Positions 994 through 34,124 of a DNA stretch of 64,000 nucleotides are shown here, piece by piece. A program made the position numbers and the translations under genes. The first letter of the stretch is position 1; every line of letters starts with the position of its first letter. The stretch is from IMG/VR virus record IMGVR_UViG_3300005670_000019. One strand, 5' to 3'. The notes under the pieces were generated by a model. It was not told where the DNA came from, did not search any database, and saw nothing but the letters and a program-made list of their open reading frames with translations. This DNA comes from a virus (lineage: Duplodnaviria; Caudoviricetes).

Positions 994-1272
994 TCAGAAA
1001 TCACGTTCCATGCCCATGCCTGGATTATCTTTCCAAGCGGCATCAGAAACTCTCTTTTCTAAATCCTCAACTTCAATTAGAAGAACTTCTAATTCTTTTA
1101 TAACTGGCTCAACTATATCTCTTGCCCATCCAAGAGGACGATTTCCCATTTTATCCAAAAGTTTTTGAAGTACAGAAATAATCTTCTTTATTTTTACAGT
1201 TGGACTCGTTTTCAAATGATCACTGACAACTTGCTCAACCAATTTACTAAGTTGTTTCTTTGTAATTTTCAT
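994..1272 (-). CDS. Hypothetical protein with MKITKKQLSKLVEQ leader (putative internal head protein)
   Basis: Tightly packed in the operon; N-terminal motif shared with several ORFs here. Confidence 0.65.
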   Translation of the reverse strand: MKITKKQLSKLVEQVVSDHLKTSPTVKIKKIISVLQKLLDKMGNRPLGWARDIVEPVIKELEVLLIEVEDLEKRVSDAAWKDNPGMGMERDF

Positions 1273-1273
1273 C

Positions 1274-1879
1274 TCATCCTACCTTATATCCGTATTTGTT
1301 CTTCAATCCACGAACAAGATACTTCCAAACAGTTTCATTTCCCTGGCAAATTTCTGCAATGTCTTCAAGAAGTTCTTCGTTTGAAAGACCATTCTCTGCT
1401 CTGAAACGAAATAACCAAGCAAGTTTACCATCAGTTTCCGGCTCGATTTGTTCCTCAAGTTTTTCGTCGCAACCTTCATCTAGTCCGCCGAATGAAATGC
1501 CGTGTTCACCACTCTTTTTCTTGGCAAGCTCTTTTGCATCCCAAACAATGTCATCATCATACAATGTTCCATATTCAAAAACAACGTCATCAAGCTGTTT
1601 TCGAATTTCTGGATCCAGACTTTCAATATCGATTTCGTCTTCGTATGAAGTTGACATGAGAAGTGGAACAACCTTAGAATGTTCCAAATCCATATCAAAG
1701 TTGGCTGGATCGATATTACGAGTCAAAAGTGAATAAGCAAGAGCCAGTTCATCACGTGAACGTCCTTTTGGACCAGACATTTCAGGCGAACTATCAAGCT
1801 GTTCTTTCATGACCTGCTTCAAAGAAGACAAAGTCAACTTCTCCGCTAGTTTATTTATTTGTTTCGAAGTTAACTTCAT
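1274..1879 (-). CDS. Hypothetical acidic protein with MKLTSKQINKLAE leader
   Basis: 201-aa ORF directly after sheath; same leader motif. Confidence 0.7.
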   Translation of the reverse strand: MKLTSKQINKLAEKLTLSSLKQVMKEQLDSSPEMSGPKGRSRDELALAYSLLTRNIDPANFDMDLEHSKVVPLLMSTSYEDEIDIESLDPEIRKQLDDVVFEYGTLYDDDIVWDAKELAKKKSGEHGISFGGLDEGCDEKLEEQIEPETDGKLAWLFRFRAENGLSNEELLEDIAEICQGNETVWKYLVRGLKNKYGYKVG

Positions 1880-1885
1880 CTTCTA

Positions 1886-4873
1886 TCATCCTGCAATAAA
1901 GTTGCCTCTGTTGTTGAGAACAAAGGAGATATCCAAGAATTCCAAAGTCTTCGTTGGTAGAATCATGATTCTTCCACGAATGGTGTTATTTTCGATATCT
2001 GCCAACGTGGTCGTTGTTGTATCGATTTGAACAAGATACTTGTCAACACCCTTGTTATCTTGCACGCGCTTCAAGATTGGTTTTACCAAGTTTGAGAAAC
2101 GCTCAAGTGTTGCTTCTCTGTTTTGCTCAAAGATGATTCGGTCAGCAATCTGTTTGACTTGACGACGAAGAGAAATCAAGAGACGACGAACGTTTACACG
2201 ATCAAATGCACTTTCAGTTTGAAGAAGTGTTCTTTGACCCCAAACAACCGTTCCTTCAGAACCTGCAAATACAGCCAATGGATTGATGTTTGCGGACTGC
2301 AAGTCATCCAAGTTGTCTCGTGAAAGACGAACCGCTGGACGAACTGTTGTTTCAAGAGCGCCCCTTGTGAAACCTGCTGGAGCAAACCATGGGTATCCAA
2401 CGCTGTCATTCTTAGCAAATGCACCAAGAACTGCTGCGGTTGAAGCTGCTGTTCTAGTTGTGTTGTTGAAGTCGTCACGGATAACAACGTCAGGGAAGTA
2501 TGCAGCACCGAAAGATGAATTCAATCCTCTGTTGTTGAAGTTGTTTGCAGTGTTGACAACAGAAAGAGTTTGTGAAGAACTTGAAACTTCTGTGCTGTTT
2601 ACATCGATGTTTTGAATATCCATCAAATACAAAGCATCATAACGGTTCTCAACCATATTCAATGCGTTGTCTGTAACGTAGGTGTTTCGAATTCCTGGAA
2701 GTGCAAGAAGTTGAATATCAACTTCTGTTACATCTGACAAGATGTTCAAAGCTGTAAGATATGAACTTACCGTTGGACCATCCACCGTTCCGCGGTTTGT
2801 GTTATCCATTTCTTCTTCAACAGCAACGTTCGTAAAGTAACGTGTTCCTTGATTGAAGATATTGACTCCATCAAATCCACCGAAAAGAGGTACTGTGAAC
2901 TTAGCCAACTGTCTTACAGAGCTGTCTGTAAGGTCTGAAGTTGCAAGAGCACGGAAACCGTTTGTTGAGTCATTTGAGATATTTCCTTGACGAACATAAG
3001 ACCATGTAACAGCATTCACAGTATCAACAAGACCTGTTGAAGGAGTGTACTTGATCTTGACTTTATTCAAAGTGAAATAGTTGTTATTGTATGCATCTGC
3101 ATCAACAATACCATTTTCAGTTGTTGCTTGAGCGCCTTGGTTGTCATAAACAACAAAGTCTGCCCAATTCGTTTGGAAATCTGGATAGTATTGAACGAAG
3201 CTTCCAATGCCTGTCTCAATCTCTGTCGATTTGTTTGGTTCAGTTACAGAGGTTTGACGCTCAAATTGAACACCCCAATACAAGCTGCGGTCAACTGTTT
3301 GGTTAGGTGAAGCTCCTCTTGAAAGAGACTTTCTGTAAGGAATTGGTGGCTGAACAAAGCGATAAGTGATTGGATCTGTACCCGAACCAGTTACGTAATA
3401 TGTTCCATCATCATTCTGATTTCCGAACGGCGCAGAGCCCGAAACTTGAAAATGTTGAACACCACGGAAACCAAATGGAAGTGCTGTTGGATCAATCTCA
3501 GCATCTTCAACTTGAGCGTCCATCTCTACACGAATGTAAGAGGAAGCATTTGGGTAGTTTCCTTGAGTGATGAGCTTTTGACGATCGGATGAGTTATCAA
3601 AGTTCCAGAATGTGTGGAAGTCTCCAATCACTTTTGCAACATAGTTTTGTGCATTTGGATTGAGGGACAAACCTCTCCATTGTTCAAGAACTTTTTTGTT
3701 CTTATCTGTGTCGTTGTAATCACGAACAATAAGGTCAAATGTACCATATTGGTCAACAGTGCTTACAGATGGTGTAATGTTCTCAATGGAGAACTTCACA
3801 CGCTTATTTGCATATTCACCGTCATCCAAAGACCAAACTCTAAAGAGATTTTGTGGTGAACCACCAAAGTTCTGAGACACAACCCAAGGGCTCTTTGGAG
3901 TCTTGTATCTGTCCTCGAAGTTTTCAAAGTTTGGCGTTACGGTTGAACCTGAGTTTCTGCTAAGAGAAGAAGAAACAAGGAAAGCAATCTGTTCTGTAAG
4001 GTATGTGCTTCCGGAAACAACACCTGAACCAGTTACGGTTGCAAGTGCTGGGTGAACAGGGAAATCCGCATAAAGGAAATGACCCTTTTCTTCAATCTTG
4101 AAAGGATCTGTATTGAAGACCTTTCCAAAATAGTTTGGAGCAGTTACATCGAAAGAAGCAGAAATAACATTTGGCTCATTCGAGTTTTTGAAACCGTTCA
4201 ACAGAAGAACGAACTCTTGTAGACTTCCCGAGATGTTTACAGAACCCGTTACCTGACCTCCAGCGTTCGTCCATGTTCCGGAAGAAGATGCTGGGGTGTT
4301 CCATGGGGATGCAGAAGATGAGAGCGTTAGAAGAACGCCTGATGGCGCGAAAACTACACCTCGAACAACTGGCGTTCCTTCGGTTGGAAGTCCTGCGGAA
4401 GAGAAGAAATCGCTTCCTGAAGTTTCTTTCATGATTGAAGCAAGAAAGTATGTTCTTCCTTCATCTCCACCTGCATATGCATATGGATTGTCATTGAAAG
4501 CACCACCTGATGCATTTTGTGGAAGGTCTGAACCGACAACAAATCCAGCATTTACAACCTTACCGGAGTTACTTCCGTCTGTTGTTCTTGCAAGTGCATT
4601 ACCTGCTCCAAGAACACGAAGATATGTAAGAGACTGAGCGTTCCTTAGCCATTCACTTGCTGCGATTGGACCATTGAAAATGTAGTCATTTGGACCACCA
4701 AAGACCTGATTGAAATCTTGAGTTGTCGGAACTGTAACAGGAACAAATGCCGGACCTCTTTGCGCAGCACCGACTACACCAGCAGGAATGCCAGTTGGTC
4801 GTGTTGCAGTTGGACCAGTTAGATTTTGAACTCTTACAGAGACACCTGCTGATTTGAAGCTGATTGTTGTCAT
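1886..4873 (-). CDS. Tail sheath protein 1 (gp18-like)
   Basis: N-terminal SAGV..GPAFVPV; C-terminal PWFAPAGFTRG, INP, WGQRTL and RVNVRRL motifs. Confidence 0.93.
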   Translation of the reverse strand: MTTISFKSAGVSVRVQNLTGPTATRPTGIPAGVVGAAQRGPAFVPVTVPTTQDFNQVFGGPNDYIFNGPIAASEWLRNAQSLTYLRVLGAGNALARTTDGSNSGKVVNAGFVVGSDLPQNASGGAFNDNPYAYAGGDEGRTYFLASIMKETSGSDFFSSAGLPTEGTPVVRGVVFAPSGVLLTLSSSASPWNTPASSSGTWTNAGGQVTGSVNISGSLQEFVLLLNGFKNSNEPNVISASFDVTAPNYFGKVFNTDPFKIEEKGHFLYADFPVHPALATVTGSGVVSGSTYLTEQIAFLVSSSLSRNSGSTVTPNFENFEDRYKTPKSPWVVSQNFGGSPQNLFRVWSLDDGEYANKRVKFSIENITPSVSTVDQYGTFDLIVRDYNDTDKNKKVLEQWRGLSLNPNAQNYVAKVIGDFHTFWNFDNSSDRQKLITQGNYPNASSYIRVEMDAQVEDAEIDPTALPFGFRGVQHFQVSGSAPFGNQNDDGTYYVTGSGTDPITYRFVQPPIPYRKSLSRGASPNQTVDRSLYWGVQFERQTSVTEPNKSTEIETGIGSFVQYYPDFQTNWADFVVYDNQGAQATTENGIVDADAYNNNYFTLNKVKIKYTPSTGLVDTVNAVTWSYVRQGNISNDSTNGFRALATSDLTDSSVRQLAKFTVPLFGGFDGVNIFNQGTRYFTNVAVEEEMDNTNRGTVDGPTVSSYLTALNILSDVTEVDIQLLALPGIRNTYVTDNALNMVENRYDALYLMDIQNIDVNSTEVSSSSQTLSVVNTANNFNNRGLNSSFGAAYFPDVVIRDDFNNTTRTAASTAAVLGAFAKNDSVGYPWFAPAGFTRGALETTVRPAVRLSRDNLDDLQSANINPLAVFAGSEGTVVWGQRTLLQTESAFDRVNVRRLLISLRRQVKQIADRIIFEQNREATLERFSNLVKPILKRVQDNKGVDKYLVQIDTTTTTLADIENNTIRGRIMILPTKTLEFLDISFVLNNRGNFIAG

Positions 4874-4901: not shown

Positions 4902-7900
4902 TCACTGAAACTCAACACCGGAGTTTGTAACAATGAAGTCGATTGCAATAAATTCAACTGCCTTCACTGGTACAAGTCTGATTTGACAGTTCAAACGATT
5001 TGCATCTGCATCTGCTTGTGTATTGTTTCTGTTATCACAGATTACATCAAAGAACTCAATTCCACCATTTGTTTGAACTTCTGACAAAAGTCTACGAAGT
5101 TGTTCACTCAAACGCTGTCTAAGTTCTGGAGTGATCTGTTCCCAAATCAAACTATTTCCAATTCCGATGACTTGGCGCTTTAGGTCAAGAAGAAGACGCT
5201 TCACGTTGATACGTTGAAGAGCCGTTCTCTCATTGTCCAATGTATTTTGTGAGAAGATAACGTAACCTTCACGAGGGAACTTGACGATTGGGTTAATTCT
5301 AACATCGGCAAGTCTTTCCTGATCTGGTTGGTTGATACGGACAGTCGTTCTTTCAACAAAGGAAAGTGCTGCACGGTTGAAACCTGCTGGTGCATACCAA
5401 GGATATGCAACCTTGTCATTGAATCCGATTGCAGCAAATGCAGCGACGGAGGCAGGAACAACAACACGGCGTTGAGTGTTCATATCTGTAATGATGATGT
5501 TTGGGAAGTAAGGAGCAACATATGAGTTGTCCAATGCTCGAAGCTCAAACTGATCTGCTGTGTTTTGAACGTCAGCACGTGTTGAAGCCGAAGCATCACC
5601 TTCTCCATCGAAAACTCTTTCAATGTCAACGTTGTAAGATGGAACGTCCATCGTGTAAAGGATAAGTCCATTTGTCGCAACAGCGTCAGCAACATAATCC
5701 GTCACAAGAGGCTCTCTTTGTCCAGGCACAGCAAGAAGATTGATTGAAGATGCCAAAGGATCTGTCATAATGTCCGTTGCTGTACGGAATGCAAAGATAC
5801 TGTTGTTCAAGATACCTGTTGCATTTTGGTTGAAACCAAATCCTGGCGAAGTGAACGCAGCGTTTGCATTTCCAATGGTTGTTCCACGAGCTTCAGTTGA
5901 AGTTGAACGGTCATTGAATGTCGCAGCATTTTTATCAAGAATGTTTGTTCCATCAAATCCACCTGCCATAAGAGCTGTGAACTTCGTGAAATCAGAGAAC
6001 TTGTTGAAGTCGGCTGCGCTTGTTCCCTTATTCAAAAGAGTTGCAAATGTGACTCTTTGAAGAGTTCCGTCCGTAATCTTGTAAGATGAAACATCTGGTT
6101 CACCATCACGAATGTAAGCTGCCTGTCGAATGTGTGTTTCAACAGATGAAGTTACGTCTGCAAGATTTTGGTTGTAAAGAGCAACACGAGCAAGAGTGAA
6201 CTTGTTGCTATTGAATCTGTTCACAAAAGCTCCAGTTACAACTGTATCAAGCTTTGAAATACCGGCAAACTTGGTGTAACTCTCAACCAATGGGTTTGGT
6301 TCAGAGGAAACATTTGGGTTTACAACGTTATTGTTTCTGCTGTCCTTGACGCCCCAAAAGAGACGACGGTCTACAACTTCAAGATTGCCAGGCGCACCTC
6401 TCCAAGTTCCAGTTGTATCAACTGAACCACGAGTTAGTTTGAAACGATATGGCAATGGAGGAACAATTGCTCCAAGAAGTCTTCCTTCGCCTGAACCGGA
6501 AGCTCCAAGACGAATCGAGCCTGCTGAACCTGTGTTGTCAAGCAACGTTGGGTTAGTTGAAAGAACTTCGTATCCCTCATAACCAAAAGGCAAAGCCTCT
6601 GGTGGAGTAAATCCTGAGTTTAGGCTCTCATCCATCTCTACACGAATGTATTTGGACTGTCCTTGATGAATTCCATATTGTTGAAGTCTCTTGTCTCTTT
6701 CATCAACAACATCGAAGTTGAAAGAAGCGTAACTGTCACCAACAACTTTTGCAATGTAGTTGTCATCTGATGGATTCAATGAGAGATTATTGAACTGCTC
6801 AACGACTTGAGGTTCATAGTCGTTATCATCAAATGCACGAACAACCAAAGAGAAAGTTCCATACTTGTTTCTCAAATCTGTAGATTTCTTGACGTTTACA
6901 ATAGAAACTTTGTATTTGTTGTTTGCGTAAGCACCATCATCTTTTGAGAAAATCTTGAAAAGACGATACTCATTCTTACCGAATGGTTGAGAAATGAACC
7001 ATGGGGTTGATGGCGTTGTAAATCTTGTGTCGAAACGTCCAAAGAGCTGACGGAATGGAGAAGAAGTATCTCCACCTGTTGTGGTTGTATTTGCTGAACC
7101 TGATGCAAGGAAAAGGTCAGCCGAACCTGTGTTGATTGAAGCAAGTTCTGCATCAACAGCGTAATCTCCGTAAAGAACGTGATATTCCGTGCCAAACTTC
7201 TCTGGATTTGTGTTCAAAACTTTTGCGATGTAGTTTACACTTGTTGGATCAAGAGAAGCAGTAACAATTCTTACACCTGCAAATCCATCACTATTGGCGA
7301 ATGAAGTTCCAACGGATGTTGAAATTGCCAACTTGAATGAACGGTCAAATGCCCCTGATGGAGCTGCAAAGCTATCAAGGTCTTCACTGTAGCTTTGGTT
7401 CCAATCAAGAACTTGAAGTCTTGTGCCCGAAGCTGCAAAGAGAACACCACGAACCAAGAACACTTCGTCGCTTGCACCTGAAGAAAGGAACGAAGCATTA
7501 TCTGTGAACATTGGCATGCCGTATGCCTCAGAACCAGTTAGAACGTGCTTACCGCCGATGAAGTAAACAGATCCTTCGGCATCACCAGGGAAACGTGAAG
7601 AGAAAGATGAAGAAACCTTGAAACCGGCATTAGTTACAGTTCCTTGAGTTCTGGTTGTGTCAATATCAGCAATAGTTGTATTTGCACCAGCACCAAGAAC
7701 ACGAACGAAAGAAACAGCGTTCTTACTTTCAAGGAATTTTTGCACAGTATAAGTTGATGGATGTTTGCTATCCAACTCACCGAAAGTGGTTACGAAATCT
7801 GAGAAAGTTCCAACTACAACTGGAACAAATGCTGGACCTTTCAAAGAAGATCCGATCACACCTGCTGGAACGCCTGTTGGTTGTTGTGAGGTTCTTGTAA

Positions 7901-7952
7901 GGTCAATCTCTCTTGGATAAAATCCTGGAGTTTTGAAAATCTGGTCTGCCAT
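4902..7952 (-). CDS. Tail sheath protein 2 (gp18-like paralog)
   Basis: TPGFYPREID, GPAFVPV, PWYAPAGFNR, INP, RINVKRL and AVEFIAIDF motifs. Confidence 0.93.
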   Translation of the reverse strand: MADQIFKTPGFYPREIDLTRTSQQPTGVPAGVIGSSLKGPAFVPVVVGTFSDFVTTFGELDSKHPSTYTVQKFLESKNAVSFVRVLGAGANTTIADIDTTRTQGTVTNAGFKVSSSFSSRFPGDAEGSVYFIGGKHVLTGSEAYGMPMFTDNASFLSSGASDEVFLVRGVLFAASGTRLQVLDWNQSYSEDLDSFAAPSGAFDRSFKLAISTSVGTSFANSDGFAGVRIVTASLDPTSVNYIAKVLNTNPEKFGTEYHVLYGDYAVDAELASINTGSADLFLASGSANTTTTGGDTSSPFRQLFGRFDTRFTTPSTPWFISQPFGKNEYRLFKIFSKDDGAYANNKYKVSIVNVKKSTDLRNKYGTFSLVVRAFDDNDYEPQVVEQFNNLSLNPSDDNYIAKVVGDSYASFNFDVVDERDKRLQQYGIHQGQSKYIRVEMDESLNSGFTPPEALPFGYEGYEVLSTNPTLLDNTGSAGSIRLGASGSGEGRLLGAIVPPLPYRFKLTRGSVDTTGTWRGAPGNLEVVDRRLFWGVKDSRNNNVVNPNVSSEPNPLVESYTKFAGISKLDTVVTGAFVNRFNSNKFTLARVALYNQNLADVTSSVETHIRQAAYIRDGEPDVSSYKITDGTLQRVTFATLLNKGTSAADFNKFSDFTKFTALMAGGFDGTNILDKNAATFNDRSTSTEARGTTIGNANAAFTSPGFGFNQNATGILNNSIFAFRTATDIMTDPLASSINLLAVPGQREPLVTDYVADAVATNGLILYTMDVPSYNVDIERVFDGEGDASASTRADVQNTADQFELRALDNSYVAPYFPNIIITDMNTQRRVVVPASVAAFAAIGFNDKVAYPWYAPAGFNRAALSFVERTTVRINQPDQERLADVRINPIVKFPREGYVIFSQNTLDNERTALQRINVKRLLLDLKRQVIGIGNSLIWEQITPELRQRLSEQLRRLLSEVQTNGGIEFFDVICDNRNNTQADADANRLNCQIRLVPVKAVEFIAIDFIVTNSGVEFQ

Positions 7953-9348: not shown

Positions 9349-10107
9349 TTATTGAGCCTGTTTCTTGGGAGGAGCAACAGTTGGAGCTTGATTTCCAGGG
9401 GTTTGTGCTGATGTTTTTGTTTTCACAGGTTTTCTAGTAGCACTGTCAGAACCAATCGACTTACCATCTTTTGCATACTCTGTATTTGCTGTGTTTTTGT
9501 CAAAACCATAATCCAAAAGAACAACACGACCATCTGGAGTTTTGCCCCAATGATCATGGAACTTCATATCACCACGAATAAGACCCTTCTTGACAAGGTT
9601 GTTGATAGCATTCAAGAAAATCAAGTCTTGTTTTGCTTTGACTTTCTGTTCAGGTGTTGACATTTTAGATTGATCAATGTCTGATGGTTCCCATTGATCA
9701 CCCATTGCATATCCGATAATCTCAGAAGAATATCCTTTGATTTTCTCAAACTCATTCCAAGATGTAAGAGGACGAACAAGTTGAGCCATGACCCAGTTAC
9801 CTTTTGGGTCACTGTTTTGAATTAAAGCAAGAGCAGGTTGCAGTGTTTTATCTTGAGCAAACTGAACTTCTGTTTTGTTTTGTGCAATGCCCTTTGAATT
9901 GGTTGCAAACTTCATAACAAAGCGATTACTCAAAAGAAAAACTTTTCTTGAAGATCCTTCTCCTAATACTTGAAACTGTTGTTCTAATTGCCGAAGCTGA
10001 TCAACGAAGGGCAAATTTTTCCATTGTTGGAAATTGAACTGTCCTTTGCTTTTCAGTTTCTCCATCAGAACCTCACTCTCGATTTTTTCGAATTCACGAA
10101 GGAACAT
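9349..10107 (-). CDS. Protein kinase-like fold protein, paralog 1
   Basis: LGEGSSRKVF, VMK, QN..E, GD....HWG and VLLDYG motifs. Confidence 0.75.
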   Translation of the reverse strand: MFLREFEKIESEVLMEKLKSKGQFNFQQWKNLPFVDQLRQLEQQFQVLGEGSSRKVFLLSNRFVMKFATNSKGIAQNKTEVQFAQDKTLQPALALIQNSDPKGNWVMAQLVRPLTSWNEFEKIKGYSSEIIGYAMGDQWEPSDIDQSKMSTPEQKVKAKQDLIFLNAINNLVKKGLIRGDMKFHDHWGKTPDGRVVLLDYGFDKNTANTEYAKDGKSIGSDSATRKPVKTKTSAQTPGNQAPTVAPPKKQAQ

Positions 10108-10146
10108 CAAAACCTCTTTTGTAAATATTTTCTTTTATTTGCTGCG

Positions 10147-10977
10147 TCAGGCATTGAATGCATAAAAGTTGATATAAACTTCATCGTTCAAACCATAATC
10201 AAGAAGAACAACTCTTCCGTCTGGTGTCTTGCCCCAATGTTCAATTTTCCCCGCGTCGCCCTCTGACAATCCATACTTCTTTCTTGCATATTCAACAGCT
10301 TCTTTATATTTTTTGAACTGTTCAGTTTCTTCTCCGAGATCAGCACGGAGCATTTCAATGTTCAGTTCCAAACTTTTTATATTTTTTTGATAATGTTGAA
10401 TATTCTTTTGTATTTCTTTGATATCTTTGGGATTTTCTGTCAGTTCTAAACTCTTTTGCAAACTGATGATCATTTGTTTTATCATTTCAAGATCATCAAG
10501 ATATGTTTCAAGGCGTCCAAATCGATCCGAACCATCAAAGAGGTCGTAAAAATCAAATCCGGCAATCTTGATGAATTCTTTCGTGGAATTATCAAATTGG
10601 TCCATTGGTTTCACCAAATCGGAAACAAGCCACATCCCTTCAGGATTGTGTTTGTAAACCTTGGCAAGAATGTGAGAAACTTCAGGATCCTGTGACATTT
10701 GTGTTTCGAGTTTGTTTTGGGCGAAACCTGCTTTATTCATTGCAATTTTCAAAACATATCTAGATGATAAAATGTAAACGGCTCGTGAAGATCCTTGACC
10801 TATCTTTTCAAGACTTTCTTTTGCATAATGATTTGCTACTGACCACTTTTCGCTATCAATCTGTTGGAATTCTTTGAAATTGAAGGAACTGTTTTGAGTG
10901 CCTTTTCTGCCTCTCAACTTCTCTTCAATGTCAGTTTGTTCCATTAGTTGCTTAAATCTTTTATCGATAAAATTCAT
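10147..10977 (-). CDS. Protein kinase-like fold protein, paralog 2 (with coiled-coil insertion)
   Basis: IGQGSSRAVY, VLK and HWGKTPDGRVVLLDYG; start placed at MNFIDK to avoid overlap. Confidence 0.75.
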   Translation of the reverse strand: MNFIDKRFKQLMEQTDIEEKLRGRKGTQNSSFNFKEFQQIDSEKWSVANHYAKESLEKIGQGSSRAVYILSSRYVLKIAMNKAGFAQNKLETQMSQDPEVSHILAKVYKHNPEGMWLVSDLVKPMDQFDNSTKEFIKIAGFDFYDLFDGSDRFGRLETYLDDLEMIKQMIISLQKSLELTENPKDIKEIQKNIQHYQKNIKSLELNIEMLRADLGEETEQFKKYKEAVEYARKKYGLSEGDAGKIEHWGKTPDGRVVLLDYGLNDEVYINFYAFNA

Positions 10978-10979
10978 TG

Positions 10980-19591: not shown

Positions 19592-19593
19592 AA

Positions 19594-22359: not shown

Positions 22360-22377
22360 ATTTTGGTCAAAGTTTGT

Positions 22378-23756: not shown

Positions 23757-23782
23757 CTTAGTTTAGTAGACTATAAGGTCCG

Positions 23783-25690: not shown

Positions 25691-25724
25691 ATTTCACCTT
25701 TGTAACTTATCAACCAAATTTTAT

Positions 25725-27917
25725 TCAGTCGGCATCCTTTTTCTTAATTCCTGAAAGGACCTGCCAACGTTCGAAGGAACCAATTGCTGGTTCATACGAG
25801 CTTTCGCGGAGGGCTGCCGATGGAGATCCCGACTTGGTTGTCGCAGATGTAGAACCTGGCATTTTCTGTCCTTTGCTTGCCTTCTCGTTAAGAACCTTCT
25901 CAACTTTAAGATAAACATCTTTTGCTTCGGCGAGAGATTTTGCGTTATCCAAGAACTCTGCGATCTTAATCTTTTGAGTTTTTGTAACATCCTCACGAGC
26001 GAACAAACGGTTTGCATATACAAGCTTAGCCGTTGTTAGTCTTTCTTCTTGTAGCTTCTTCTCAAGATTCTTCTTCTCAAGAAGTGCTTTTTGAACCATC
26101 TTCTTAGCTTGTTCGCTAACTACTGGTTTACGAACTGGTGCTGGAGCTGGTTTGCGTGCTTGTGGCTTTGAAGGAGCCTTCTTTGAGGTCTTTGACTCTT
26201 GAAGTTTCTTAAGTTGTGAAACAACCTTACGACGGATGGACTCAACCAACTCATCATCAAGGAGCATTTCCTCACCCTCGTCACCAAGGTCTGAACCACC
26301 AAGTTCATCTCCACCAAGCTCTGAATCAAGGTCATCTCCACCAAAATCATCTGATGCACCAAGACCCTCGGCGTCATCAACAACCTCAAGCTCTTCATCG
26401 TCGCCAAGGTCAGACAGGTCAAGATCCATTCCATTTACTGTAAGAAGGAATTCGTCCTCGCCTTCCATATCAGAATCCATGTCGTGATCAATGTCAATAG
26501 CAAGGTCACCCTCACCCATGTCACTGTACTCACCAAGATCCATGTCTTCTGCCATAGCCATTTTCTTCTTGTCGGTATTTCCGATCTTTGCTCCGCCCTC
26601 TTCCCACTCAAGGTCAAGTGCGTGACCGCCTTCATCAGCTTCTTTCAAAGCCTTCTTGAGACGTGCAATATTTTCTTTCTTTAGACGACGGAAGACTTCA
26701 CGAAGCTCTTCTTCTTCAACTTCGAACTCCTCGGACTCGGCAACAGTCTTTGCAGCAAGAGACTTTGATTTGTCGTGTACATCTTTTGAAGCAGTCTCAG
26801 CACCGGAAGCTTCTGAACCATCACCGAATGGTGAGCCAGCATCTTCAAGATCACTGTTTGTGCTTTCTTCTTTCATAAGATCAACATCGTCTGCACCATC
26901 TACTGATTGTGCGTGTGAAGTTGCCTTGTCATCTGTTGGTACTCCTGTATCACCTGTTGAATCGGAGTCTTGCGCGAGGTTCTCTTCCTCGAACAATTTT
27001 GCTGCCATTTCTTTAAGAGTTGCCATCGTTGTCTTACCCTTTTCTTCTCCATAACTATTGCTGGATTTTGCTTCTTTCAATTTCAAATTGAGAAATTCTA
27101 ACTTATTCTCTTCATTTTTTTGTTTTTTGGCATTAATTTCACCCGTTTCTCGAAGATAATCGAGTGTTTCTACCAAAGAGAATAATTGATTTTTCAAACT
27201 ATCAAACACAATTCTTGGAGTATTTTTTCTAAAGAAAGCTCTGTCAATTTTGTTTGATACTTCGGAAAGCTTTGTTTTATAGCCTTCATAAGTACGTGTT
27301 TCTGGAAGTGTTGGCTCTGTTTGTTCTGCCTCAACACCTGCAAGTGCATCAAGAGATGTGTCAAGACCGGCTTCTGCTCCAGGCTCTTGTCCTGCTGCTG
27401 CATTTACGTCTTGACTCTCTGGTGTGTTTGTTGATGGCAATGCTGGTTGTTCTGCTGGAGCACCAACATCCAATGAGGATGCATCAACTGAAGATGGAAG
27501 AGCTTCTGGATCGTTGTCATCTGTTTGAACAAACAATTGATCAAAATCAACAACAATCTTTCCGTCTTCATCTGGAAGTTGAAGTCCTGCAATATCATTT
27601 TGCGGTTGTACTGGGGCTGGTGAAGCATCTCCACCCATTGAAGCTGGTGTCGTTTCAACCGAAGCTGCATTCATATCTGCTCCAGTGTTTCCAGCATCAA
27701 GTCCTGTATCAAGACCAAGATCCCCTGTACCGTCTTCAGTTTCATCAAACTGAAGTTCTTCCTGCTCAAGGAGTGTCTTTCCAGAAGAAATCTCTGCTGA
27801 AATTGCTCTTCGAATTACAGGAGTAATCTGTTCCAAGATTTTATTTCTTGCTTCCTGAACAGCCAATTCTCTAATTTTGTTGGCATCTGCCAACGCTTCA
27901 TCATATAGTTTACTCAT
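25725..27917 (-). CDS. Prohead scaffold/core protein
   Basis: Acidic low-complexity 730 aa directly upstream of capsid; AKLVYAN..; many LxE sites. Confidence 0.78.
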   Translation of the reverse strand: MSKLYDEALADANKIRELAVQEARNKILEQITPVIRRAISAEISSGKTLLEQEELQFDETEDGTGDLGLDTGLDAGNTGADMNAASVETTPASMGGDASPAPVQPQNDIAGLQLPDEDGKIVVDFDQLFVQTDDNDPEALPSSVDASSLDVGAPAEQPALPSTNTPESQDVNAAAGQEPGAEAGLDTSLDALAGVEAEQTEPTLPETRTYEGYKTKLSEVSNKIDRAFFRKNTPRIVFDSLKNQLFSLVETLDYLRETGEINAKKQKNEENKLEFLNLKLKEAKSSNSYGEEKGKTTMATLKEMAAKLFEEENLAQDSDSTGDTGVPTDDKATSHAQSVDGADDVDLMKEESTNSDLEDAGSPFGDGSEASGAETASKDVHDKSKSLAAKTVAESEEFEVEEEELREVFRRLKKENIARLKKALKEADEGGHALDLEWEEGGAKIGNTDKKKMAMAEDMDLGEYSDMGEGDLAIDIDHDMDSDMEGEDEFLLTVNGMDLDLSDLGDDEELEVVDDAEGLGASDDFGGDDLDSELGGDELGGSDLGDEGEEMLLDDELVESIRRKVVSQLKKLQESKTSKKAPSKPQARKPAPAPVRKPVVSEQAKKMVQKALLEKKNLEKKLQEERLTTAKLVYANRLFAREDVTKTQKIKIAEFLDNAKSLAEAKDVYLKVEKVLNEKASKGQKMPGSTSATTKSGSPSAALRESSYEPAIGSFERWQVLSGIKKKDAD

Positions 27918-27924
27918 GTTCTAA

Positions 27925-28440
27925 TCACTCGCTGCTTGAACGTCCGTAAATCAATCTGCCAATCTTTTGGCTACTAATTTTCTCTGCTGTATCTTTTGGA
28001 ACAGCGAACCCATCAGTGTTTGCGCCTGGAGGAGTATTGAATGCTCCGCCACCACCGCGCTTACGTTGAGTTGCTTCAACACCTGCTGCTGGAATGTTTG
28101 CTGGGTTGTGTGGATCCTCAGCTGCCACTGCAATGTTAGGAGCATAAGGACTTCCCGGAAGACCTCCGCCACCAACTTCAACATCTGCAAAATCAGGAGC
28201 ACCATCAGGGTTACTTGTAGAAGGACCGTAATCCAAATTTACTGTACCAAACGTATGTCCCTCATCACTAATTGTTCCATCTTGGAAGCTTTGTGCCAAA
28301 GCAGTAACTTGGGCGTCTTTGTATTCACCAGAATACACAGGAGAGCCTGGATAGAGAATTTGCATATCTCTTGTATCACTGGATCCCATTCCGAATGTTC
28401 TTACTGGTGGTTCGACTTTGATTTGTTTGTGTGAAGGCAT
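27925..28440 (-). CDS. Hypothetical head-module protein
   Basis: Gly/Pro-rich 171 aa; AAGGAG RBS and TATTTA upstream. Confidence 0.75.
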   Translation of the reverse strand: MPSHKQIKVEPPVRTFGMGSSDTRDMQILYPGSPVYSGEYKDAQVTALAQSFQDGTISDEGHTFGTVNLDYGPSTSNPDGAPDFADVEVGGGGLPGSPYAPNIAVAAEDPHNPANIPAAGVEATQRKRGGGGAFNTPPGANTDGFAVPKDTAEKISSQKIGRLIYGRSSSE

Positions 28441-28485
28441 TGAATAGCTCCTTAGCTTTTTCTAAATATACGTTCAAAATCAAAA

Positions 28486-28986
28486 TCAACGAGGTCTTTG
28501 AGACTTAGAGAATGCAAGCTCTGCCCAACGAGAAGCAAACTGTCCTTCTTGACGAGGAGGAGCAACTGGCGTTGGCATTTCTTGTTGTTCTTGAAGCATG
28601 TGAGGCTGTTGATAGTTTTCTTGATAACTTTGGTGCATTCCTTGTTGAAGAACGCCCATGTGTTGAGCGTGCCTATCTCCCAAAACGTGAGGATGGTTTG
28701 CAGCCGTGTCTGAAAATATTTCGTAGAGAGCACTCATTTGATTTGGATTGCCTTTTGCCATATTCGAAGCCAATGTTGAAATAGCTCCTGCGGCTGGGTG
28801 TCCGTGCATCATTTGGTTATAGTGAGGCTGCGGGAAACCGTTTTGTGGAGGCATTATTTGAGGATTAGAAGGCATTGAAACTTGCTTCATGCTTTCCATC
28901 ATCATTTGTTGAAAATGACCTTCTTGAATTAATTCTTTCAAACACTCTTTGATTAGTGATTTGAATTGCTTACCTGACATTTTCAT
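28486..28986 (-). CDS. Hypothetical protein with MKMSGKQFKSLIKECLKE leader
   Basis: ATGA overlap with the protease gene; Q/M/P rich. Confidence 0.75.
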   Translation of the reverse strand: MKMSGKQFKSLIKECLKELIQEGHFQQMMMESMKQVSMPSNPQIMPPQNGFPQPHYNQMMHGHPAAGAISTLASNMAKGNPNQMSALYEIFSDTAANHPHVLGDRHAQHMGVLQQGMHQSYQENYQQPHMLQEQQEMPTPVAPPRQEGQFASRWAELAFSKSQRPR

Positions 28987-29627
28987 TTTTTATTACCCTT
29001 TTTGATCTGTTCGTGAAAGTCGAGAACTTCATTTGCTACACGATCAATCATGTCACTCTTTTTGAAGAAACCTTGAAGTGAGCTAACATCAACTTCCTTT
29101 CCTTCTTTAAACATGAAGGCGCCCGGAGTGGAAGGTTCAGAGACAAAATCCCAACAAATAAGTTGAAGGTCGTCTTGAACAACATTTACATCTCCATGTC
29201 GTTCGACAGAGCCCAATGCACGAGAAGAAATTCCGACCTTGATGTCATTCTCAAACAGAACCTTCAATTGTCTTCCTTGGTCCATGTTTTCAAGAATTTC
29301 AACTTCACCATAAACAACATCGTCTTCCCACCAAACATCTGTAATGACGTGAGAAACAAACTTTAGGTTTACAGTTGGTTCGTCTGCATGATCAAGTTCT
29401 CCTGTTGCTCGGCGTTCATCGATTAGTTTCTTATAGTTTGAAACTTCGCGCCTAAGAACATCAAGTGGATAAACTCGTCCATTTGCATTTTGAGTATTTG
29501 CTCTTTGAAGGACTCCACGTACAAGCATGTTTCCGTATTTTGAACGACGAACCTTTTTTTGTCCTTCGGTTTCGTCATACAACTTCTCATATTCAAACTC
29601 AGCAAACTCTTTTAGAAATTTAGCCAT
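28983..29627 (-). CDS. Prohead protease (gp21-like)
   Basis: NANGRVYP, GELDH, VSH, GISSRALGS and DFVSEPSTPGA motifs. Confidence 0.93.
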   Translation of the reverse strand: MAKFLKEFAEFEYEKLYDETEGQKKVRRSKYGNMLVRGVLQRANTQNANGRVYPLDVLRREVSNYKKLIDERRATGELDHADEPTVNLKFVSHVITDVWWEDDVVYGEVEILENMDQGRQLKVLFENDIKVGISSRALGSVERHGDVNVVQDDLQLICWDFVSEPSTPGAFMFKEGKEVDVSSLQGFFKKSDMIDRVANEVLDFHEQIKKGNKK

Positions 29628-30483
29628 TGAAATACTCCTTTTCGAACTTGCTGACAATCATATACATTTTGATGGTTGCTTCATTGATAGATGATGTGTC
29701 ATACTCATCTAAGATAGATTTGATAGAAGAGAGTTTTTCAAGAAGTGGTTTCTTGAATTCTTCATTAGATTTTGCATCTTCAAAAATACGAAGTGCTTTG
29801 CTTTTGATTTCTTCAAGCTTTGAAACAAGTTGTTTTTGATGTTCTTGTGAGCCTCCAAAAAACAACTTGATAATCTGCTTTTGATCTTCGTTCAAACTAG
29901 TTTCATATTTGCTGTTGAACTTGTTTGTCATAATCTGATAAGCAAGTCCGTTTATGTCATCTTGTGTCATTGACAAACAAGATGGATCTCCTTCGTTCTC
30001 TTTCTTCTCTCGAAGAAGCCATGACAAAACAGTTTCTTCTAGTGAGGCAACATCAGAAGCACTTTCCAGAAGAGTTTCATTTGACTTCCAATAATTCAAA
30101 AGAATTTGAATGCTAGCAAGTTCTTTGTATTCATTGATGGAACGATTCCAAAACTCTGGATCATTTAGTTTGAAGTTGACGTTTTGAATGAAGGCATTCT
30201 TTTCAGTTTCCAACTTTTTGTTGTCCAACTTCTTCACATGAGATTTGACTTGTTCCATTAGTTTCAAAGCAATCTCTTTGTTTTTGAATTTTGAACCATG
30301 AAGTGCTTTGAAGGCAAGAAATTCTTTATTCATTTCAGTGCCAGGTCTTAGAGCATTCTTCCAAAGAACAATAGCCTTATCAACTCCTTTCTCATCCTGT
30401 GCAAGGACACAGTGAGAAATGTGTTGTGAGACAAACTCAGTCAATAATCCAATGTTTCTTTTTTTGTTGTGTTTAAAAGCCAT
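29620..30483 (-). CDS. Hypothetical protein between portal and protease
   Basis: KHNKKRNIGLL.E N-terminus; AAGGA RBS. Confidence 0.75.
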   Translation of the reverse strand: MAFKHNKKRNIGLLTEFVSQHISHCVLAQDEKGVDKAIVLWKNALRPGTEMNKEFLAFKALHGSKFKNKEIALKLMEQVKSHVKKLDNKKLETEKNAFIQNVNFKLNDPEFWNRSINEYKELASIQILLNYWKSNETLLESASDVASLEETVLSWLLREKKENEGDPSCLSMTQDDINGLAYQIMTNKFNSKYETSLNEDQKQIIKLFFGGSQEHQKQLVSKLEEIKSKALRIFEDAKSNEEFKKPLLEKLSSIKSILDEYDTSSINEATIKMYMIVSKFEKEYFNG

Positions 30484-30531
30484 TTGGGCTATTCCTTCAG
30501 CCAAATCTTTGTTTAATTATAGAAGAGTTTT

Positions 30532-32634
30532 TCAAGAAGACGAATTTTCCAATTCTTCTTTTATTTTTTGCTCCATTTCATCAGTTTCACTAAGTTCTAA
30601 GCCCTCAAAGTCTACTTCTTCAAGTAGTTGTTCAACGGAAGACTTTTCATCGGTCAAAGTGAAATCGATTTCTTGCTCTTCATTCAAAACCTTTGATACT
30701 TTGTGGTGTCTGTCAAAGCTATCAAAGATTGATCTCATACTCTTGGAGATTATGGCTGACGGCTTCAAAACAGAACGGATTTCACTTTCCAAATCTGCCC
30801 TTAGAAGATCCTTGATTGTGATACTTTCTTTTCTTAGAGGGTTTCTAAGATATTCCAAATCATACGGATCTTCAGCGTCTCTATTTGATGGTGACAACAT
30901 AGAAGCAAAGTCTGGATTTAGATTTTGAATTGAACCGGCTCTTCTTTGGTAGTTTTTCTTGTTTCTGTCAAGAATTGGTGTAGCAGAAGCTCCGATTGGA
31001 AGTTGACCACGTTCACCTGAACCCAAAAGAGGTGCAGTGTCCCCATCTTGGTTTTTTGGTGTAGGATTGAGGGCTGCAAGATAATCAACTTCTCCTTGTG
31101 TTTGAGGTTGATTTACAATTTGTTTTGAAGGCTCTCTTTCTACAGAAGTTTGAGAGTATGCAGAAGGATCAAACGGATCAACATCACGTTGCTGTTGTTG
31201 AGGAAGGTTTTCTGCGGTAATAGTCTCGATTTCAGCCTCAGAAATCTTGTCTCTTCTAAGACCAATCTCAATATCTGCCATTTCTTGTGAAGTCAATCCG
31301 AGAATGTTCTTTTTGATCCAATTCTCATCAACAAGCTTGGTTTCTTTTGCTGCTCCACCAATTTCAAATCTGTTCTTCCACAAATCCAACTTTTGTTGAA
31401 CTGCCACAGATGAAGGATTTGACAATTTGATTTCAAAATTAACAAGGTCTTCTCCATCAAAACCTCTTGCATAAAGATGAAGCATTGCAATTTTGTTCAA
31501 CTCTGCAATAACCATCTTTTGAAAGATCGAAACTGTTCTGCTGAAACGAATATCTTCTTGTGCTAGTGTTGCTTTACCACCAAGAGCTTCATCGAAACCA
31601 AGGTAAGCTTTTGGAACTTGCAAAGCAGAAAACAATTTACGTTGAATGTATTCAACGTCTTCAATCGCTGTATTGTTAGTACCCCCAGGAAGAGTTTCGA
31701 TCTTTGTAGCTTCGTTAGCACCTCTTTTTGGAACCCAATAGTCTTCAAGAACAGAAACAGGATTCCATCGTCGGTCTTCACGACCTGACATTTTTTCAAC
31801 CATGTTCTTTGAAGAAAGTTGGCTCTTTACACCTTCCATGTAACTTGGAATGTCGTTTGGAGCAATGTTTGCTACGTCAACATAGAATACTCGGCGTTCA
31901 GGGCTTCTAACAATTCTATAAACCAACATGGCATCTTCAAGCATTCCAAGTTGATGCCAAACTCTTCGAGCTGGGTCCAAGATTGAGGAACCGTATGGAA
32001 GGAACCTGTCATTTCCAAGAATACGGAAATGAGTAACTTGCCAGTTCTCCAAAATCTTTCCTCCATGAGTCAACCATTTGAAGCGGACGGCGTATGGATC
32101 TTCTGGATCATATCCTTCCACTCTTTCAACTTGGTCAACAGGAATCGGAACAACGTTGATTATACCATGTTCTGGAATGATTTCATTGTAAAGAAAGAAA
32201 TCTCCGAACTTACAGAGATTTCTTACCCATGGTCTGAGATTGAATTCAACATTGATGATATCATAAAAAAGTTCATCTAAGGTTTTCTTGATTTCACTAT
32301 TTTCACTAAAGATATGAAGACTTCTGCCTCTATCATCAACAGATGAGATTTCGTCTGCATAAATGTTCAAAGCAGTAGCAATCTCAGCAGTGTTTTCCAT
32401 TTCAACGAATTCACTGTAACGAGCGAAACGATCAATCATTCCATAAGAACCAAGAACTGAGAATGGAGAAGCCTCTCTTCCAAATGGTGCTCCTGCTCTG
32501 TATCCAATGTTGTTTCGAAGGATGTCATTATCGAACATAGCCTTGGTATCGATGTTCTTGATTTTTCTTGTAATCGACGGACCAGATCGAAATAACTTTG
32601 TCAGTCTCTTGTAGAAGTCTTTAGGATTTGCCAT
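30532..32634 (-). CDS. Portal protein (gp20-like)
   Basis: LEDAMLVYRIVRSPERRVFYVD, EDYW.P, IETLPGG and EDIRFSRT motifs. Confidence 0.95.
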   Translation of the reverse strand: MANPKDFYKRLTKLFRSGPSITRKIKNIDTKAMFDNDILRNNIGYRAGAPFGREASPFSVLGSYGMIDRFARYSEFVEMENTAEIATALNIYADEISSVDDRGRSLHIFSENSEIKKTLDELFYDIINVEFNLRPWVRNLCKFGDFFLYNEIIPEHGIINVVPIPVDQVERVEGYDPEDPYAVRFKWLTHGGKILENWQVTHFRILGNDRFLPYGSSILDPARRVWHQLGMLEDAMLVYRIVRSPERRVFYVDVANIAPNDIPSYMEGVKSQLSSKNMVEKMSGREDRRWNPVSVLEDYWVPKRGANEATKIETLPGGTNNTAIEDVEYIQRKLFSALQVPKAYLGFDEALGGKATLAQEDIRFSRTVSIFQKMVIAELNKIAMLHLYARGFDGEDLVNFEIKLSNPSSVAVQQKLDLWKNRFEIGGAAKETKLVDENWIKKNILGLTSQEMADIEIGLRRDKISEAEIETITAENLPQQQQRDVDPFDPSAYSQTSVEREPSKQIVNQPQTQGEVDYLAALNPTPKNQDGDTAPLLGSGERGQLPIGASATPILDRNKKNYQRRAGSIQNLNPDFASMLSPSNRDAEDPYDLEYLRNPLRKESITIKDLLRADLESEIRSVLKPSAIISKSMRSIFDSFDRHHKVSKVLNEEQEIDFTLTDEKSSVEQLLEEVDFEGLELSETDEMEQKIKEELENSSS

Positions 32635-32682
32635 AATGAATACTGTCTAAATAGTCCTTGCTCTTGAGCATAGACTGTAGTC

Positions 32683-32704
32683 TCTCTAATTGGTTATGTT
32701 CCAC
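32683..32704 (-). repeat. 22-bp dispersed motif, copy 2
   Basis: GTGGAACATAACCAATTAGAGA on the minus strand, upstream of portal. Confidence 0.85.
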
Positions 32705-32740
32705 TGAATATCAGAACATATTCAACACATAATTACTCAT

Positions 32741-33139
32741 ATGTCTAACATTCTGTCTCAAAACCAAAAAGACCGGATTATCTACGTTTCATCATTTGTT
32801 CAAAACACAACAGATGATTGGGTTCGTGTCAAAACTGAAATTGTCAAACTATTTCCCCCAAAAGAAAGAAAACTCTTTACAAGAAGACATTACAGTACAA
32901 AAAAACATAGTATCAATGATTTTGAAAAAGAAGTAATCAAGTTTTGGAAGTCACAAACAGGAATTGAACTTGTTCTCGCCGAGGAAGATAAACATCCGGA
33001 AGATTGGATCAGAAGACCTTCTGGTTGGGGATTACAAATCATCAATGAACAGAGGAAGCTATTTAGCAAAGGGAAGTCAAATGTCAAAAAAAGAAAAAGA
33101 AAAAAAGCTAAAAGAAAAGCTTCTCGAAGCAATCATTGA
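32741..33139 (+). CDS. Hypothetical basic protein
   Basis: 132-aa ORF; TAATTA 5 nt before ATG. Confidence 0.7.
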   Translation: MSNILSQNQKDRIIYVSSFVQNTTDDWVRVKTEIVKLFPPKERKLFTRRHYSTKKHSINDFEKEVIKFWKSQTGIELVLAEEDKHPEDWIRRPSGWGLQIINEQRKLFSKGKSNVKKRKRKKAKRKASRSNH

Positions 33140-34124
33140 AGAAAGTATTGATCAAGTTCTTCGTGAAGAAGAAAGTCTTCTTGGAGGCTTCCTTTCTCCT
33201 TTTGCAGATGTGATGCGCTCTGCTGCATGGGGCGTTGAGAGTCTCGGAGCAAAAACAACAAACGCAATCAAATCAACCTTTGATGAACTTCGTGGTTTGA
33301 TGATTCCGGGTGTTGAATATGATTGGGAAAAATTCAAAAATGATGAAAAGGCTTTGATGGGAAACATCGACGCAAAATACCAAGACATTATTCAAAAGAA
33401 TATGGAAGCATTGAAAAACTCTGACCTTCCCCTTTTCATGTTCGCACTTGATCCGACTTCAACAATTTCTTACAAGATAGCACCCAAAGCACCTTCAGCA
33501 GCTCTTGCTCTTGCTGAACCAATCGTTGGTGCCGTTTCTCCTAAAGCAGGAGCCGCTGTAGGGCGTTGGAAGAATTGGTGGACCAAGGCTGCGAAGAATT
33601 TTTCTTTGGGCGGTGGAAAGGCTGCTACGGTTTCTGGAGATGGTAGCTATGACATGTCTGCTGACGTTGCTCTAGGTTCGATTGGGGAGGGAAAGATTTT
33701 TGAACAACAAGCTCCTCAACCTCAACCTACAACACAAAAACAACCACCAAATCTAAACCAACTTCTTCAAAATCCTGACTTTGTCAAAGCAATGAACTCT
33801 AGTCCCATTACAAAACAAATGAGACAAGGAGCTCTTGATGCTCTTGTGAAAAGAATTGAAGCTGTTATGAAAGCTGACAGTCTTCAAACAATGCAAAAGA
33901 TTGTTGGACCCGAATTGGCTTCAAAAATACAAACAATAATTGATAAACAAGATAAAACTATTTCAAAAGAAGAACAAGCAAAACTTGACCAAGCTTCAAT
34001 GAAAGAAATTCAAAATGTTTTCAAAGCTGTTTATTTGAAACAGTTGAACGACCTTTCTCAAAAACTTCCAAACGCAAAAAATGACATTTTGAATACAATT
34101 AAACGCATTTCTGCTCTAAAGTAA
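33081..34124 (+). CDS. Hypothetical protein (putative internal head protein)
   Basis: LLEAIIEESIDQVLREEE leader; TATTTA at 33060-33065. Confidence 0.7.
   Translation: MSKKEKEKKLKEKLLEAIIEESIDQVLREEESLLGGFLSPFADVMRSAAWGVESLGAKTTNAIKSTFDELRGLMIPGVEYDWEKFKNDEKALMGNIDAKYQDIIQKNMEALKNSDLPLFMFALDPTSTISYKIAPKAPSAALALAEPIVGAVSPKAGAAVGRWKNWWTKAAKNFSLGGGKAATVSGDGSYDMSADVALGSIGEGKIFEQQAPQPQPTTQKQPPNLNQLLQNPDFVKAMNSSPITKQMRQGALDALVKRIEAVMKADSLQTMQKIVGPELASKIQTIIDKQDKTISKEEQAKLDQASMKEIQNVFKAVYLKQLNDLSQKLPNAKNDILNTIKRISALK

Follow-up and report, generated by a model that had tools for sequence, protein, structure and literature searches.

In bacteriophage T4, the internal proteins IPI-III carry a capsid-targeting sequence (CTS), and the propeptides of Alt, gp23, gp24, gp67 and gp68 are removed by gp21 (Mullaney and Black 1996, reviewed in PMC9026906, PMC3012670, PMC5694885). 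The internal-protein propeptides are 10-19 residues long. For packaging, ten N-terminal residues of IPIII are enough, of which 4 and 7 act in targeting and 8 and 10 in processing; Alt is trimmed twice, at ITE-6 and, near the C-terminus, at LTE-619 (PMC9026906, PMC5694885). In the T4 record, ipII and ipIII start MKTYQEFIAE, gp22 starts MLKEQLIAE and gp67 starts MEGLIEAIK. Here we describe a stretch of 64,000 nucleotides from an uncultured virus of the Caudoviricetes (IMG/VR record IMGVR_UViG_3300005670_000019; hereafter the window), in which about ten otherwise unrelated proteins encoded between positions 994 and 34,124, kinase-like proteins and one with an ADP-ribosyltransferase (ART) fold included, appear to bear a short helical tag. 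We put at roughly 0.6 the probability that this peptide is the lineage's own T4-like CTS, a propeptide that would be cut after [LIV]-x-Glu.

The locus resembles the T4 system in its homologous protease, portal and capsid genes, in having on unrelated proteins a short N-terminal peptide that ends in [LI]-x-Glu, in the size and layout of that peptide (M-K, hydrophobic residues, I/L-x-E), and in its variable cargo genes; T4 Alt is a precedent both for an ART as cargo and for a C-terminal propeptide. It differs in that the consensus in the window is MK-x-[ST]-KKQL-x-x-L-[IV]-E as opposed to the MKTYQEFIAE of T4, that there is more cargo and of other kinds (protein-kinase-like, ART fold of putative H-Y-E type, DUF5661, DUF7178), that some of the tags lie inside fusions, and that the system is known here from sequence alone. 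In giant phages of the phiKZ type (SPN3US, 201phi2-1), the propeptides of ejection proteins are cut at A/S/G-x-E (PMC5694885). There, too, the protease is related, cleavage follows Glu and conserved N-termini are found on diverged paralogues (SPN3US gp53 and gp54), but the propeptides are mostly longer than 100 residues and have a small residue at P3, whereas the tags described here are T4-sized with Leu, Ile or Val at P3.

A further parallel is offered by the polyvalent proteins of phages and conjugative elements, among which truncated kinase domains and cassette-like variation have been described (Iyer et al. 2017, PMC5512222). Like them, a 602-residue protein of the window strings together effector-type domains, and its ART-fold domain, as well as DUF5661, recurs in polyvalent proteins of 1,100-3,000 residues that also contain ART-PolyVal, C39 peptidase, GNAT and SprT domains. 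Unlike them, the 602-residue protein is small, lacks a peptidase domain and bears CTS-like helices at its junctions, so that any processing would fall to the prohead protease; no protein of the window matched the Pfam polyvalent-protein families.

A short helical tag in the virion half of the window

The tag has the anatomy of an amphipathic helix of 10-20 residues, with a basic front, M-K-x-[ST]-K-K-Q, followed by a hydrophobic core and Glu, L-x-x-L-[IVA]-E; read directly, its copies end in LVE, LAE, LIE, IKE/LKE/IQE, LVE/IVE, IIE and LME. A preliminary description of this DNA had quoted nine such peptides on unrelated open reading frames (ORFs), and all nine are present where it placed them. 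Six copies are statistically solid, namely those at the N-termini of ORFs 994-1272, 1274-1879, 20280-20528, 28486-28986 and 33081-34124 and an internal one at residue 86 of ORF 19594-20283. Two to four further copies draw their support from relatives only, and of those quoted previously, KTIKQLIFE, LLKSLIFEE and the C-terminal copy are not significant on window data alone. The copies are listed here with their scores in the matrix or the profile hidden Markov model (HMM, in bits) described below.

28918-28986, minus strand: tag MKMSGKQFKSLIKECLKELIQEG at the N-terminus of the 166-residue ORF 28486-28986; top match of the independent tag HMM, 13.0 bits
33081-33143, plus strand: tag MSKKEKEKKLKEKLLEAIIEE opening ORF 33081-34124, which is transcribed away from the portal gene; 8.8 bits
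20472-20528, minus strand: tag MKLSKKKLGALIEQIIQEE of the 82-residue ORF 20280-20528; leave-one-out score 16.0, 6.7 bits
19978-20028, minus strand: internal tag MTKKELKKLVESIVEAE, residues 86-102 of ORF 19594-20283; matrix score 17.8, 7.6 bits
1234-1272, minus strand: tag MKITKKQLSKLVE of the 92-residue ORF 994-1272, between the sheath and tube genes; leave-one-out score 17.9, 5.1 bits
1841-1879, minus strand: tag MKLTSKQINKLAE of the 201-residue ORF 1274-1879; leave-one-out score 12.9, the next N-terminus reaching 4.9
14196-14228, minus strand: candidate tag MKTIKQLIFER of ORF 13800-14231; next-best N-terminus in three of four leave-one-out rounds, not significant alone
10936-10977, minus strand: tag-like start MNFIDKRFKQLMEQ of the kinase-like gene 10147-10977, a copy that the preliminary description had overlooked
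21550-21579, minus strand: internal MLLKSLIFEE, residues 261-270 of the 602-residue protein, directly before the ART-fold cassette; 2.3 bits, noise level in the window
22381-22434, minus strand: C-terminal RRIRQIVGALIEEEIRNL of the DUF7178 protein 22378-23253

The matrix was built from the four most similar N-termini as seeds, each left out in turn, and 106 N-termini were scored with it. The four seeds, MKITKKQLSKLVE, MKLTSKQINKLAE, MKLSKKKLGALIEQ (ORF 20280-20528) and MKMSGKQFKSLIKE (ORF 28486-28986), each outscored all N-termini outside the training set (8.0-17.9 against at most 6.3), and the best match that was not a seed, among 18,614 positions, was the internal peptide MTKKELKKLVESIVE at 20028 in ORF 19594-20283. 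All matrix scores of at least 10 fall within 1-34 kb and none in 34-64 kb; shuffled proteomes gave 0.5 matches scoring at least 12, compared with six observed, four of which are the seeds. A second profile, an HMM of the peptide such as the preliminary description had proposed, was made from 35 aligned N-termini of other phages only, matched within a locus between ORFs that have no other similarity. When scanned over the window, this other-phage profile recovered five sites, those at 28486, 33081, 20280 and 994 and the internal one in 19594; the best match to reversed sequences was 2.7 bits and shuffling produced 0.1 matches of at least 6 bits per proteome. A loose version of the tag, [LIVMFY]xx[LIVMFA][LIVM]x?E within the first 20 residues, occurs in 18% of N-termini and 5% of internal segments in the 1-34 kb part, and in 5% and 3.5%, respectively, in the 34-64 kb part.

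Several copies are also conserved in orthologues. ORF 28486-28986 lies directly downstream of the protease gene, which is the prohead-core position, and its orthologues in four related loci (L001, L003, L004 and L006; 26-33% identity) retain the tag. For ORF 32964-34124 the true start is the ATG at 33081, and the peptide LLEAIIEE is thus within an N-terminal tag; the orthologues L003_5423 and L004_3030 start with an equivalent helix. The C-terminal peptide of the DUF7178 protein, RIRQIVGALIEEE, scores only 1.5 bits, which is noise level on window data alone, and an orthologue in L095 (64% identity) likewise ends in a tag-like helix, KRKLGILIKEQLDIIVSAW. We considered whether this C-terminal copy might be the split-off N-terminal tag of the in-frame gene downstream, but did not adopt this as the main reading, since in L095 the gene that follows is a different one and the orthologue has its C-terminal tag nonetheless. 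As a separate observation, ORFs 22378-23253 and 20551-22359 (minus strand) are in the same frame with only a TAA and 18 nt between them (22357-22380), and read-through would yield a protein of ~900 residues. The DUF7178 gene of another contig, L094, is 100% identical to that of the window.

Among relatives, the tag recurs in two collections of IMG/VR loci. In eight loci found via the protease (43-68% identity), the ORF after the protease gene always starts MK[ML]x[RK]S[QE]FKxL[MI]KEC; five ORFs of L007 start MK[KR]SELKxLI, ...L-x-A-L-I-E-E-I is found at the start of ORFs that follow the capsid gene in L001 and L003, and the scaffold N-termini of relatives read MSELYKEAIAEA, close to T4 MKTYQEFIAEA. 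Within one genome, the tagged proteins have no similarity beyond the tag. A further 78 loci were found via the kinase-like gene, and in the 86 sets available in total (78 kinase loci, seven protease loci and the window), comparison of non-homologous ORFs of the same locus gave 32 N-terminal pairs scoring at least 35 and no such pair of internal segments; the majority of the 32 are helices of the type MKLT-x-x-QLR-x-LIKEE. The loose pattern is present in 15.4% of N-termini and 5.6% of internal windows of the 78 kinase loci. We regard the existence of a non-random tag as shown; within the window it is confined to the virion half, orthologues conserve it and relatives have it as well.

Kinase-like and ART-fold proteins and their probable fusion joints

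The preliminary description had listed as enzyme modules four kinase-like, several ART-like, one glycosylase-like and DUF5661. The 602-residue protein (ORF 20551-22359) consists of three parts, an N-terminal domain, an ART fold and a kinase-like domain. The kinase-like and ART-related features are as follows.

9349-11678, minus strand: three tandem kinase-like paralogues (9349-10107, 10147-10977 and 10980-11678), phrog_4301
20554-21174, minus strand: kinase-like C-terminal domain of the 602-residue protein; family HMM E-value 2.1e-41
21175-21543, minus strand: ART-fold domain, residues 273-395 of the 602-residue protein; AlphaFold2 pLDDT (predicted local distance difference test) 91
21910-22359, minus strand: untagged N-terminal domain of the 602-residue protein, residues 1-150; family HMM E-value 7e-55

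The call of four kinase-like modules held up. All four phrog_4301 paralogues are matched by a family HMM built without window sequences (E-values of 1e-41 to 1e-72), and an AlphaFold2 model based on 37 sequences (pLDDT 90) has as its leading Foldseek matches only protein-kinase-like folds: APH(2''), the choline kinase LicA, PRPK, Rio and Lpg2603. VIA-align returned APH(2''), LicA, PRPK, Rio2 and CDKL1 at Z-scores of 7-8.5, which the tool rates as middling. The family conserves G-x-G-S-S-R, VLK and LLDYG, with G62, S63, R65, K77, D241 and D260 invariant; the Gly-rich loop, the VLK Lys and the LLDYG Asp do not vary, and the Gly-rich loop, beta-3 Lys and DxG Asp typical of protein-kinase-like folds are all represented. 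A protein-kinase-like fold is thus supported by modelling for the four paralogues. At an E-value of 1 or less, none of the 37 members matched a curated Pfam kinase family (Pkinase, Phage_T7_kinase and the polyvalent-protein kinase included) save for one marginal match to the AceK kinase domain (0.079), no PDB sequence matched the family at an E-value below 0.1, and a neighbouring Atlas cluster, 17% of which is Phage_T7_kinase, is a lead only. Because no curated kinase family matches the sequences, we treat these proteins as a separate family with a predicted kinase-like fold and a putative activity. With the start of the gene at 10147-10977 corrected to the ATG at 10977, 2 nt past the upstream stop, its tag-like N-terminus becomes apparent, and a helix that ends in [LIV][LIV]-E-K-I-R-S opens nearly all of 44 homologues and most ORFs of the 78 loci. 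In the AlphaFold2 model, this N-terminal helix (residues 3-13) is set off from the domain by a low-confidence linker. In the cultured jumbo phage Xanthomonas phage XacN1 (L092), the kinase-like ORF170 starts with the tag-like MKQVRLSQFLSE; the text of the XacN1 virion proteomics paper does not mention ORF170. The upstream neighbour of the kinase-like gene there (ORF170 and ORF171 being the pair) starts with VSKKKLNQLFDE, which is also tag-like.

The expectation of several ART-like modules was borne out for one. The model of residues 273-395 clearly has an ART fold: the top Foldseek matches are TreX, KptA/Tpt1 and pertussis toxin S1 (probability 1.0), an independent VIA-align search of 48,161 chains gave Z-scores of 8.4 for KptA and 8.1 for TreX with nearly all of the top 50 being ARTs. 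As candidates for a catalytic H-Y-E (or R-S-E) triad, the His of LYHGT, the Tyr of YLYLT and the acidic residues of DPED show conservation of 90% or more. The other ART-like calls (the N-terminal domain, the N-terminus of 11680-13068, and 23312-23647) were left unconfirmed. For the N-terminal domain, an Atlas match to the Arr-ms and DarT/PARP clusters at 0.92 is the only ART lead, and hhalign of its family against the ART family gave a probability of 1.9%; the ART-domain HMM reached E-values of 0.29 for the 111-residue ORF 23312-23647 and 3.4 for 11680-13068. The C-terminal half of 11680-13068 (minus strand), stand-alone homologues of which are L087_8536 and L082_19, contains hydrophobic stretches like membrane spans (GVTTVVGLVLGIMGGIPLLL), and the protein may be a membrane-active ejection protein. 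PDB sequence searches with the 602-residue protein, the kinase family, the N-terminal domain family and DUF7178 yielded nothing significant. No ORF in 994-34124 gave a glycosylase signal in Pfam or PHROGs, and this call was not confirmed; DUF5661 was recognized by Pfam, at residues 13-84 of ORF 19594-20283, with the internal tag directly after it.

The cargo genes occupy variable slots. LLKSLIFEE, which is conserved in P0047 and P0048, marks the point at which the ART cassette is inserted: P0047, a strain of 97% identity, lacks exactly that cassette and reads LIKSLIFEE directly followed by LDLNEGDIEE, a presence/absence polymorphism of a single domain. The same peptide is nearly identical to MSSTKLLKSLIIE, the tag with which P0080, a homologue of the N-terminal domain family that stands alone, begins. 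In both N-terminal domain families, a tag directly before the first strand is often the start of such stand-alone homologues, as in MSSTKLLKSLIIEILNE...VTVYH and MNRILSIIKEELAKQ...LDLYHGT, and many homologues of the N-terminal domain have an N-terminal tag before VYH-x-SP. Other arrangements include a tag, DUF5661 and a kinase in one ORF (L064) and DUF5661, a linker, LLLREMY and a kinase (L075). Since stand-alone homologues carry matching N-terminal tags, the internal tags look like former N-terminal tags that were kept at fusion joints.

These joints are also candidate cut points. The preliminary description had the modules bounded by L/I-x-E sites; in this general form the claim is not supported, since the module has 1.49 [LI]-x-E sites per 100 residues and other regions 1.31, about the same. 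The density in the 602-residue protein, 1.33 per 100 residues, is also at background, with sites clustered at both borders of the cassette (267 and 391-402).

The head genes and their neighbours

The virion module, from a phage distantly placed within the T4 superfamily, takes up the 1-34 kb part of the window. Judged from profile matches, the phage carries the T4 head-maturation set, an S77 protease, a Gp23 capsid protein and a Gp20 portal.

28983-29627, minus strand: gp21-family (T4) prohead protease, probably starting at 29627 with MAKFLKEFAEFEY
25725-27917, minus strand: scaffold-like acidic coiled-coil protein of 730 residues, with 21 [LI]-x-E sites (2.9 per 100 residues)
23783-25690, minus strand: gp23-type major capsid protein; Pfam Gp23, 2.9e-73
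30532-32634, minus strand: T4-type portal (Gp20); Pfam Portal_T4, 4.5e-65
309-797: gp19-type tail tube

The protease (ORF 28983-29657) was identified by Pfam Peptidase_S77 (PF03420, 2.4e-20) and phrog_207 (2.9e-44), and the scaffold-like gene is placed between the core genes and the capsid gene. Residues 1-60 of the capsid protein (25511-25690) are a predicted propeptide that aligns with the propeptide of T4 gp23, such that L58-R59-E60, followed by A61, is aligned with the T4 cleavage site L63-T64-E65, followed by A66. Four of the seven [LI]-x-E sites of the capsid protein are in these first 60 residues (9, 34, 49 and 58), and the next is only at 422. Among cultured phages, Microcystis phage Mel-JY01 gives the best match for both capsid protein and protease, though identity is only 35-46%, and a search of region 19000-34000 against 50,697 phage records produced no nucleotide match. 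We found a single instance of the T4 late promoter TATAAATA in the window, as expected by chance, so that it gives no indication of late timing, and no shared repeat was found in the DNA upstream of tagged genes.

Several other features of the module were noted. The neck genes of the window are gp13- and gp15-like, and two tandem tail-sheath paralogues of ~1,000 residues each (1886-4873 and 4902-7952, minus strand) have the same pair as a counterpart in the related locus L064. A GIY-YIG homing endonuclease ORF (15496-16209) has almost the same first 16-17 residues (MPTFIQTMNPTPWGYW) as the gp13-like neck gene 14228-15511 (MPSFIQTQNPCPFGYW) directly downstream (minus strand), and its insertion seems to have brought along a copy of the 5' end of the target gene. 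In L094 (1472-2125) an extra GIY-YIG endonuclease ORF is situated between the capsid gene and the 111-residue ORF, and is lacking at that place in the window (23648-23782). A Thg1-like tRNA-His guanylyltransferase (18764-19591) and a DUF192 protein (16777-17172) are encoded inside the virion module, and a Cpn60-family chaperonin (35854-37599) just past it.

Proposed capsid targeting and its alternatives

If the tag is a CTS that works as in T4, the helix would dock its protein on the scaffold or core during prohead assembly, the gp21-family protease would then cleave after [LIV]-x-Glu at the end of the tag, and the mature protein would remain in the head, from which it could exit with the DNA. 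We infer these four events, docking, cleavage, head retention and injection, only from the T4 parallel. It is a strong analogy for targeting to the prohead core and for removal of the tag by the S77 protease; delivery to the host would be one inferential step beyond these, and the cleavage of fused proteins into separate enzymes is suggested by analogy as well. The tagged set would comprise the prohead-core protein beside the protease, the conserved protein beside the portal, several small proteins, the DUF5661 fusion, the DUF7178 protein with its C-terminal tag and the widespread kinase-like family, and by the same analogy the tagged enzymes are probably loaded into the capsid like the internal proteins of T4.

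A number of observations weigh against this. The 602-residue protein has no N-terminal tag, and we know of nothing to show that an internal tag is able to target a protein. The [LI]-x-E motif is common everywhere (1.41 per 100 residues overall), so that a site after the tag is weak evidence alone, being necessary and not discriminating. The cargo tags have no significant sequence identity to the T4 CTS, Mel-JY01, the closest cultured relative, has only faint versions of the tag, and neither the 166-residue protein 28486-28986 nor a tagged small protein of L044 found any protein match in the 50,697 phage records. Finally, some loci place kinase-like and tagged genes amid replication genes, not virion genes, and no S77 gene was found in the five contigs of this kind, which are 9-45% complete.

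One alternative is that the helix is an assembly element of the prohead core or scaffold and nothing else, the tagged proteins being transient like T4 gp67, gp68 and gp22, and degraded and expelled, not delivered as enzymes. The clearest tag is indeed on a small protein beside the protease gene, in the position of T4 gp67/gp68, and L007 has three tagged small ORFs in that slot; the scaffold N-termini of relatives carry a similar helix, and several tagged proteins are small with no recognizable enzyme domain. However, a kinase-like fold also follows such a tag, as do, in many phages, ART-fold and related domains that stand alone, and there would be little point in destroying an enzyme inside the head. 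T4 uses one signal for core and delivered proteins alike. We think this account unlikely. The loci with replication genes would suit a different proposal, in which the helix has nothing to do with the capsid and is an N-terminal module of general use (an oligomerization, localization or degradation signal) that was spread among accessory genes by recombination: in L014, L027 and L044, tagged genes stand beside RNR, UvsX-like and gp32-like genes on fragments where the S77 protease was not found. Against this, the incompleteness of those contigs has to be considered, the T4 ip and alt genes are likewise located outside the head module, every strong copy in the window is in the virion half, and the tag ends in a protease motif and is a helix shared by core, scaffold and capsid proteins; a general module seems to us more improbable again than a core-only element. 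That the resemblance is due to chance or composition, in K/E/L-rich N-termini of an AT-rich genome, is hardly tenable. The three weakest copies are at noise level and MK starts are common, but the leave-one-out ranks, the shuffled and reversed controls, the absence from 34-64 kb and the conservation in orthologues at 26-64% identity have already refuted it for the six strong copies.

With a T4-like CTS as the preferred explanation, it is tempting to speculate more widely. In a broad clade of T4-related phages of ~100-350 kb from aquatic and wastewater sources, a helix that can be read from sequence may define the packaged proteome and perhaps also provide the joint at which effector cassettes (the ART fold, DUF5661 and the near-universally tagged kinase-like family) are swapped and fused, the protease splitting polyvalent precursors into enzymes that would enter the host with the DNA. 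We advance this tentatively, as a possibility that is more doubtful than capsid targeting itself. If it is true, these phages would deliver protein kinases from the virion, of which no published account was found in the literature searched. XacN1 could be an experimental system for the tag, and the tag itself, if it works as it does in T4, might serve as a handle by which foreign proteins are loaded into the heads of phages other than those of coli. More generally, and on the same condition, a simple rule, a helix and [LIV]-x-Glu beside an S77 protease, could make it possible to read from the sequences of many large uncultured phages which proteins they package and probably inject; among these would be kinase-like and ADP-ribosyltransferase enzymes, able perhaps to act on the host ahead of all phage gene expression.

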